Source: Escherichia coli
GTDB lineage: Bacteria; Pseudomonadota; Gammaproteobacteria; Enterobacterales; Enterobacteriaceae
Length of the DNA stretch: 64,000 nt
Strand: one strand, 5' to 3'
Assembly (NCBI RefSeq): GCF_050920415.1
Contig: NZ_CP169309.1
In this document: piece after piece, positions 63,242-63,628 of the stretch
Layout: each line of letters starts with the position of its first letter
How positions within the stretch are numbered: position 1 is the stretch's first letter
The notes under the pieces: generated by a model
What the model was told of the DNA's origin: nothing
The model's input: only the letters and a program-made list of their open reading frames with translations
Database searches by the model: none
Translations under genes and position numbers: made by a program

Positions 63242-63628
63242 TTAACGATACTTCTGGTGATAGGCGTTGCGGGTCGTTTTCAGTTGCTCTGCGGCAGCCT
63301 GCGCTTCTTTTACTTTACCTTCATTAGCCAGCTTCAGCGCGTCGTCAATCTGACCGACCAGAATGTCGAAACCGTGGCGGAAGTCTTTCATCTCCGGGCT
63401 GTCTGGCGATTTGCCTTCGAGCTTCGGCGGCGTTGCTTTTTGCGCATCCAGCGCCGCTGCGCGCATTTTGGTTAACGCGTCTTTGACTTGCGCCGCGTTA
63501 TCGGCTTTTTCGACCACTTTTAAATTGTCGTTGAGGGTTTCCATATTGTCTTCAAGATCAGCGGCAAACGACGCCGAACTGAATACCAACGAGGAGACTG
63601 CAAGAATAGCTAACAGGCTTTAACGCAT
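63242..63628 (-). pseudogene. cybC: Soluble cytochrome b562 with an in-frame TAA at codon 3 of the signal peptide
   Basis: Minus-strand frame reads ATG CGT TAA then [30 protein letters not shown]... through to ...AYHQKYR; the stop lies at 63620-63622. Confidence 0.75.

Follow-up and report, generated by a model that had tools for sequence, protein, structure and literature searches.

Among the closest described counterparts of the locus analysed here are two alleles of cybC from Escherichia coli itself. E. coli B carries a functional gene encoding soluble cytochrome b562 (PDB 256B/1APC; the parent of BRIL) as a 128-codon precursor, and cybC has been found to be highly expressed in the B strain REL606 but not in MG1655 (PMC3446290). 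In MG1655 the gene has been described as a pseudogene, its function being unknown (PMC3349551), and the curated record of that strain also annotates it as such (b4236 in NC_000913.3). In addition, cybC has been deleted from T7 Express to give a delta-cybC strain that was employed as an expression host, and native b562 is recognised by the anti-BRIL Fab BAG2 (PMC13041623).

We have analysed a 64,000-nucleotide stretch of E. coli DNA, referred to below as the window, close to one end of which cybC reads Met-Arg-stop. An earlier sequence-only reading of the window had considered this gene to be either a nonsense pseudogene or a gene rescued by reinitiation at a downstream non-ATG start. Our comparisons indicate that window cybC is probably a genuine null or near-null allele, private to this strain and very recent, in which the Lys3 codon AAA has become TAA.

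The cybC frame and its premature stop

Window cybC lies on the minus strand in the order pmbA (tldE) - cybC - nrdG, which is that of the standard E. coli cybC locus, and its 5' end reads AAGGAAGTGAGCA ATG CGT TAA AGC CTG TTA GCT ... in the window sequence. Within the interval 63200-63720 the minus strand runs ...AATAAGAAAAAGGAAGTGAGCA ATG CGT TAA AGC CTG TTA GCT ATT CTT GCA GTC TCC TCG TTG GTA TTC AGT TCG GCG TCG TTT GCC / GCT GAT CTT GAA ..., the slash marking the signal-peptide cleavage site. The features of the region, in window coordinates, are the following.

63681 to 64000, minus strand: 3' end of pmbA (tldE), upstream neighbour of cybC, running off the window (open reading frame and annotation)
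63637 to 63641, minus strand: native Shine-Dalgarno (SD) sequence AAGGA (sequence, and predicted pairing of -6.3 kcal/mol with the 16S rRNA 3' end)
63626 to 63628, minus strand: native ATG, the same start as annotated in strain MFDS1022581 and in E. coli B
63625 to 63623, minus strand: codon 2, CGT
63620 to 63622, minus strand: premature TAA (ochre) at codon 3, where relatives have AAA (Lys3)
63563 to 63628, minus strand: signal-peptide coding region, 22 codons, cleavage SFA/ADL, intact except for the change of K3 to a stop (translation, alignment)
63245 to 63562, minus strand: mature cytochrome b562 coding region, 106 codons, intact (structure and profile match, Met7 and His102)
63242 to 63244, minus strand: natural TAA stop of cybC (sequence)
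63242 to 63628, minus strand: whole cybC frame, 129 codons including the natural stop, cut at codon 3 (translation, PF07361, structure match)
63202 to 63233, no strand assigned: 14-bp hairpin between the convergent cybC and nrdG, dG -23.3 kcal/mol
62733 to 63197, plus strand: nrdG, convergent with cybC (open reading frame and MFDS1022581 annotation)

The causal base is position 63622, a T on the gene strand and an A on the plus strand, by which AAA becomes TAA. The stop that the earlier reading had placed at codon 3 is present in the sequence, and all of the coordinates given there are exact. It is the sole interruption of the frame 63242-63628, which is otherwise open as far as HQKYR and the natural stop. 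With codon 3 read as Lys, the translation matches PF07361 (Cytochrom_B562) along the entire profile (positions 1-102 of 102; E=5.8e-34; score 117 bits, cutoff 30), and the mature protein matches residues 1-106 of 1apc/256b end to end (E=9.4e-64), its first residue aligning with residue 1 of these PDB entries and with residue 23 of the 128-residue 9tmp_A. Both Met7 and His102, which we take to be the haem axial ligands of cytochrome b562, are found in the translated frame (ADLEDNM(7)...NAYH(102)QKYR). The full-length matches to the family profile and to the structures, together with the two ligands, show that this is not a chance open reading frame, and bear out the claim that the stop is followed by an intact signal peptide and a complete cytochrome b562. 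By profile, ligands and synteny the frame is cybC by descent, but it is not an intact gene, since the path from the SD sequence and start codon to the mature protein is broken by the TAA.

The allele of E. coli B differs little from this one. Its signal peptide is identical to that of the window and its mature protein is identical at 104 of the 106 residues, the differences V17I and G50D being conservative or allelic; both haem ligands and the same gene neighbours are found in the two strains, but codon 3 is AAA in E. coli B and TAA in the window. K-12 b4236, on the other hand, shares with window cybC the gene, the locus (pmbA/tldE - cybC - nrdG) and the position of the lesion at the extreme 5' end, as well as a mature cytochrome b562 frame that is intact but uncoupled from its start and signal peptide. 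The lesion itself is another one. Alignment with E. coli B shows that K-12 has lost 26 bp (GTGAGCAATGCGTAAAAGCCTGTTAG), which removes the ATG and codons 1-7, whereas these 26 bp are all kept in the window. A 54-mer across the K-12 deletion junction occurs in 355 genomes and no others; of the 40 matches listed, nearly all are laboratory strains derived from K-12. The point nonsense mutation of the window is found in 0 of 5,426. The substitutions A100S and Q103K of K-12 cybC are also absent from the window. We therefore rejected the possibility that the window is simply K-12 with its known pseudogene: K-12 carries the 26-bp deletion and aligns only from codon 8, at about 95% identity. The earlier reading had supposed cybC of K-12 to carry a pseudogene annotation, which is correct for b4236, but this status is not relevant to the window, which carries a different lesion in a different lineage (about 95% identity to K-12, as against one mismatch in 43 kb to MFDS1022581).

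Two observations on the K-12 allele may be added. In K-12 AG100, the 26-bp deletion sets the AAGGAA SD sequence 2 nt from the in-frame ATT at codon 8. PGAP annotates a 121-aa cytochrome b562 CDS starting at ATT in K-12 derivatives, whereas the curated MG1655 record (NC_000913.3 4459488-4459855) gives a pseudogene. As for the upstream intergenic region, 3,885 of 5,426 complete E. coli genomes have there, between pmbA and cybC, an element of about 130 nt that contains inverted repeats (…GGGCCGGGGAGCGTACTCGCAGTACGTGACCCGG…) and is single-copy in each of them. Both B and K-12 carry it upstream of cybC, but it is absent from the lineage of the window, where the corresponding site is at about 63645.

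Downstream, the neighbours convergent with cybC are nrdG and nrdD. The hairpin at 63202 to 63233 (z = -7.85; 0 of 200 shuffles folded as well) is probably a bidirectional terminator. Since cybC is convergent with nrdG, the nonsense mutation has no downstream gene on which to exert polarity, and, with cybC being monocistronic, other genes should be unaffected by the stop. No Rfam family reached its gathering score in the cybC region, a promoter scan of 63100-63800 found none, and a terminator scan of the same interval gave only two plus-strand consensus matches, which is the chance expectation. The draft genome GCA_017777015.1, which belongs to a different E. coli lineage, has a RelB/ParE-type toxin-antitoxin pair (80 and 96 aa) separating cybC from nrdG, inserted where the window has its terminator hairpin. 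The A-to-T change also deletes a TAA in an overlapping frame, opening a 25-codon open reading frame at 63558-63635 (minus strand) from a GTG at 63635. We rejected it as a meaningful gene, the GTG abutting the AAGGAA SD sequence and being too near to it for initiation; it is probably meaningless and its translation is unlikely.

Nearest relative and distribution of the TAA allele

The complete genome closest to the window is that of strain MFDS1022581 (NZ_CP169399.1). A direct comparison showed window positions 20962-64000 (43,039 bp) to be colinear with it, with position 63622 as the sole mismatch, and its cybC to be an intact 387-nt CDS annotated as cytochrome b562, with AAA at codon 3. Over window positions 1337-20966 (19,630 bp) there are two further mismatches. 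One is an intergenic A/C difference at 7117, between uxuA and gntP, where the window allele is also found in 3 other genomes. The other is at 20472, in nanM, where the window has the common allele (Gly245; 4,429 genomes) and MFDS1022581 has Asp, which is thus the derived state. In the 62.7 kb compared with this relative, then, no base other than 63622 is private to the window. A further difference is an IS2 of about 1.33 kb, its junctions showing a GTCTA target duplication, that has inserted close to the beginning of nanS in MFDS1022581, at a site corresponding to window position 20962; nanS is uninterrupted in the window (open reading frame 20910-21890). We accordingly rejected the possibility that the window is the MFDS1022581 sequence with one altered base; its alleles at 7117 and 20472, neither of them private, and the absence of IS2 from nanS indicate a real and distinct close relative of that strain.

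Some other features of the window were recorded in passing. In the pepA-holC intergenic region there are two overlapping direct repeats of about 120 nt (38347-38564; 92.5% identical) that coincide with a match to Rfam naRNA4 (nucleoid-associated ncRNA / REP-type) at 38421-38496. A strong match to Rfam Ysr276 (Yersinia antisense sRNA) at 37391-37585 on the minus strand (188 bits; gathering score 100) lies antisense inside pepA; it is probably due to the conserved coding sequence of pepA and not to an sRNA. Upstream of mgtA there is an Mg2+ riboswitch/leader (55568-55683, minus strand; 125.8 bits). The tRNA-Leu(CAA) gene leuX is at 26292-26376 on the minus strand, and beside it, following the MFDS1022581 annotation, are a full-length 1,171-aa helicase gene, yjhR, and the remnants of a truncated sialate O-acetylesterase gene and of a frameshifted gene for a phosphorothioation-dependent restriction endonuclease.

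The gene itself is nearly universal in the species, being present in 5,425 of the 5,426 complete E. coli genomes, most of which are 95-99% identical to the window over 501 bases around cybC. The TAA, however, is private to the window. A 91-mer across position 63622 matched 5,421 genomes, and its full-length matches all have at least one mismatch, the best of them (98.9% identity) differing by one base. A 55-mer in which every 28-base megablast seed spans the T gave 0 matches in the 5,426 complete genomes, and the exact allele-specific 31-mer carrying the TAA, GTGAGCAATGCGTTAAAGCCTGTTAGCTATT, is absent from the JGI metagenome contigs and the GTDB species-representative genomes. The earlier reading had proposed comparing codon 3, AAA or TAA, with that of other strains: every genome examined at the site has AAA. 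An early stop codon at a site that is a sense codon in the intact, annotated gene of close relatives, as found at this locus, is what characterises a recent unitary nonsense pseudogene, and with 0 of 5,426 genomes sharing the TAA and the intact gene of MFDS1022581 only one base away, this becomes the best-supported of the two interpretations that had been offered.

Comparison of the mature coding region with those of three lineages about 4% diverged showed, in this small sample, 10-12 synonymous and 0 nonsynonymous codon differences, which indicates that the gene is constrained by purifying selection and that the lesion is recent. Window cybC shows no secondary decay either, which makes the stop, provided that it is real, a very recent one.

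The same observations have to be weighed against a more trivial explanation. It is unlikely, though not to be dismissed lightly, that the T at 63622 arose by error during sequencing, assembly or consensus calling, or is some other artefact of the record, the strain itself having a normal cybC with AAA at codon 3. The T is known from a single assembly, being absent from the 5,426 complete genomes and from the metagenome and GTDB scans; it is the sole private base in 62.7 kb when compared with the nearest relative; the rest of cybC is undecayed; and the change from TAAAA to TTAAA keeps the length and moves a homopolymer boundary, which is a plausible pattern for a long-read error. All these observations would nevertheless be predicted by a very recent true mutation as well. 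Besides, polished assemblies seldom contain substitution errors, the systematic errors of nanopore reads cluster at Dam (GATC) and Dcm (CCWGG) motifs, neither of which is present at the site, and cybC has demonstrably been lost in E. coli lineages. On balance, a genuine null or near-null allele is the more probable reading.

Possible translation beyond the premature stop

In the window, ribosomes recruited by the native SD sequence and ATG would be expected to terminate after fMet-Arg. Because none of the in-frame starts downstream has a ribosome-binding site of its own, the Sec signal peptide (22 residues) and the haem-binding four-helix bundle (106 residues) would essentially not be made, and the strain is expected to lack periplasmic cytochrome b562 except for traces produced by reinitiation or readthrough. 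The native ATG, with its predicted anti-SD pairing of -6.3 kcal/mol, has the only good SD sequence in the region, and no SD sequence was predicted by pairing at any of the in-frame starts downstream of the TAA, which are the following.

63614 to 63616, minus strand: CTG, codon 5, near-cognate, 3 nt past the stop; SD pairing -2.3 kcal/mol, not usable
63605 to 63607, minus strand: ATT, codon 8, near-cognate, 12 nt past the stop; SD pairing -0.1 kcal/mol; the PGAP start in K-12 derivatives
63587 to 63589, minus strand: TTG, codon 14, 30 nt past the stop; SD pairing +0.9 kcal/mol; start of the longest remaining open reading frame (115 aa)
Codon 29, minus strand: ATG (the Met7 haem ligand), 75 nt past the stop; SD pairing -1.0 kcal/mol

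We consider it very unlikely that cybC is still functional in the window, with useful amounts of cytochrome b562 arising by reinitiation at CTG5, ATT8 or TTG14 or by readthrough of the UAA. In its favour, CTG and ATT, at 3 and 12 nt from the stop, are within reach of termination-reinitiation, which at native E. coli gene pairs is reduced by 40-80% at +14 nt and is nearly gone at +38 nt (PMC10666635). Products begun at CTG or ATT would retain 18 or 15 signal-peptide residues, respectively, in both cases including the hydrophobic core and the SFA/A cleavage site, and ATT is already accepted as a start by PGAP in K-12 derivatives, so that these two codons may yield a trace of product retaining most of the hydrophobic core. 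Nevertheless, neither CTG nor ATT nor TTG has an SD sequence, and the near-cognate codons AUA, AUC, AUU and CUG initiate at 1-2% of the level of AUG even when provided with a good SD sequence (10.1101/063800). Every alternative start, moreover, loses both basic residues (Arg and Lys) of the n-region of the signal peptide. The TTG, which is the only start of a canonical class before the mature protein, is 30 nt away and leaves nine uncharged residues (MVFSSASFA); as this remnant lacks charge and a hydrophobic core, its product is expected, by standard signal-peptide rules, to be cytoplasmic. Taking predicted SD energies and signal-peptide remnants together, there is predicted to be no start with a ribosome-binding site from which a functional, exportable product could be made. 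As regards readthrough, UAA is the most efficient bacterial stop, and no suppressor tRNA is found in the window, whose sole tRNA is tRNA-Leu(CAA) with a normal anticodon.

Conservation would be expected of a selected mechanism, but the arrangement is found in no other of the 5,426 genomes, and only CTG and ATT lie within 12 nt of the stop. Since this stop-start arrangement is conserved nowhere, there is no sign that recoding or coupling has been selected for here, and from reinitiation a trace of product is, at most, to be expected. The earlier proposal of rescue through a downstream non-ATG start thus finds no support: such starts have no SD sequence, the remnant left by TTG is unfit as a signal peptide, and none of the 5,426 genomes has the arrangement.

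A weaker form of the same idea would take ATG-CGT-TAA as a two-codon upstream open reading frame, after which reinitiation at CTG (or ATT) would give a low level of exported b562 with a shortened, uncharged signal peptide, the allele being then a hypomorph and not a null; we regard this as most improbable. This SD-driven mini-frame formally resembles the phage lambda bar minigene (AUG-AUA-UAA). Two-codon minigenes of the bar type release peptidyl-tRNA, and for bar to be toxic, expression must be high, a rare tRNA must be involved and the cell must be deficient in peptidyl-tRNA hydrolase. Unlike for lambda bar, there is no hint of any such toxic effect for the mini-frame of the window.

Loss of cybC in E. 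coli

The exact 115-aa product starting at TTG is encoded on five contigs, and none of those shown has the TAA. One of the five has a frameshift, two are contig ends (lineages about 96% identical), and the remaining two were grouped as similar to the frameshift locus. In GCA_041630535.1, cybC has been inactivated independently, likewise inside the signal-peptide coding region, and gene callers give the same 115-aa TTG-start remnant as in the window; its lesion, however, is a 1-nt deletion at codons 9-10 causing a frameshift, and not a nonsense substitution, and its lineage is a different one (96.3% identity to the window over 10.8 kb). As a separate observation, contigs of the draft genomes GCA_025528095.1 and GCA_017777015.1 break at cybC codons 13-14, an indication that a repeat or mobile element has inserted within the signal-peptide region or immediately 5' of it in these strains, unless the breaks are a coincidence of assembly.

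The pseudogene of MG1655, the 26-bp deletion in 355 genomes, the frameshift in GCA_041630535.1 and the delta-cybC derivative of T7 Express indicate that cybC is dispensable and has been repeatedly inactivated at its 5' end. The nonsense allele of the window is best seen as a commonplace, very recent inactivation of a gene that E. coli can do without (unless the base was miscalled), and involves no new mechanism. We infer that cytochrome b562 has been lost in this strain and that its loss is nearly neutral.

The locus would be better annotated as a cybC pseudogene (nonsense, K3 to stop) than as the gene for a 115-aa cytochrome b562 with a TTG start. The comparison also makes explicit the nature of the K-12 lesion, a 26-bp deletion with no stop codon, on which the PGAP and the curated MG1655 annotations disagree. 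The strain from which the window comes would be a natural b562-null background, and its allele adds a third independent 5'-end lesion to a near-universal, constrained E. coli gene without known function. Such repeated 5' loss of a gene that nearly every genome of the species retains fits with cybC being conditionally dispensable.
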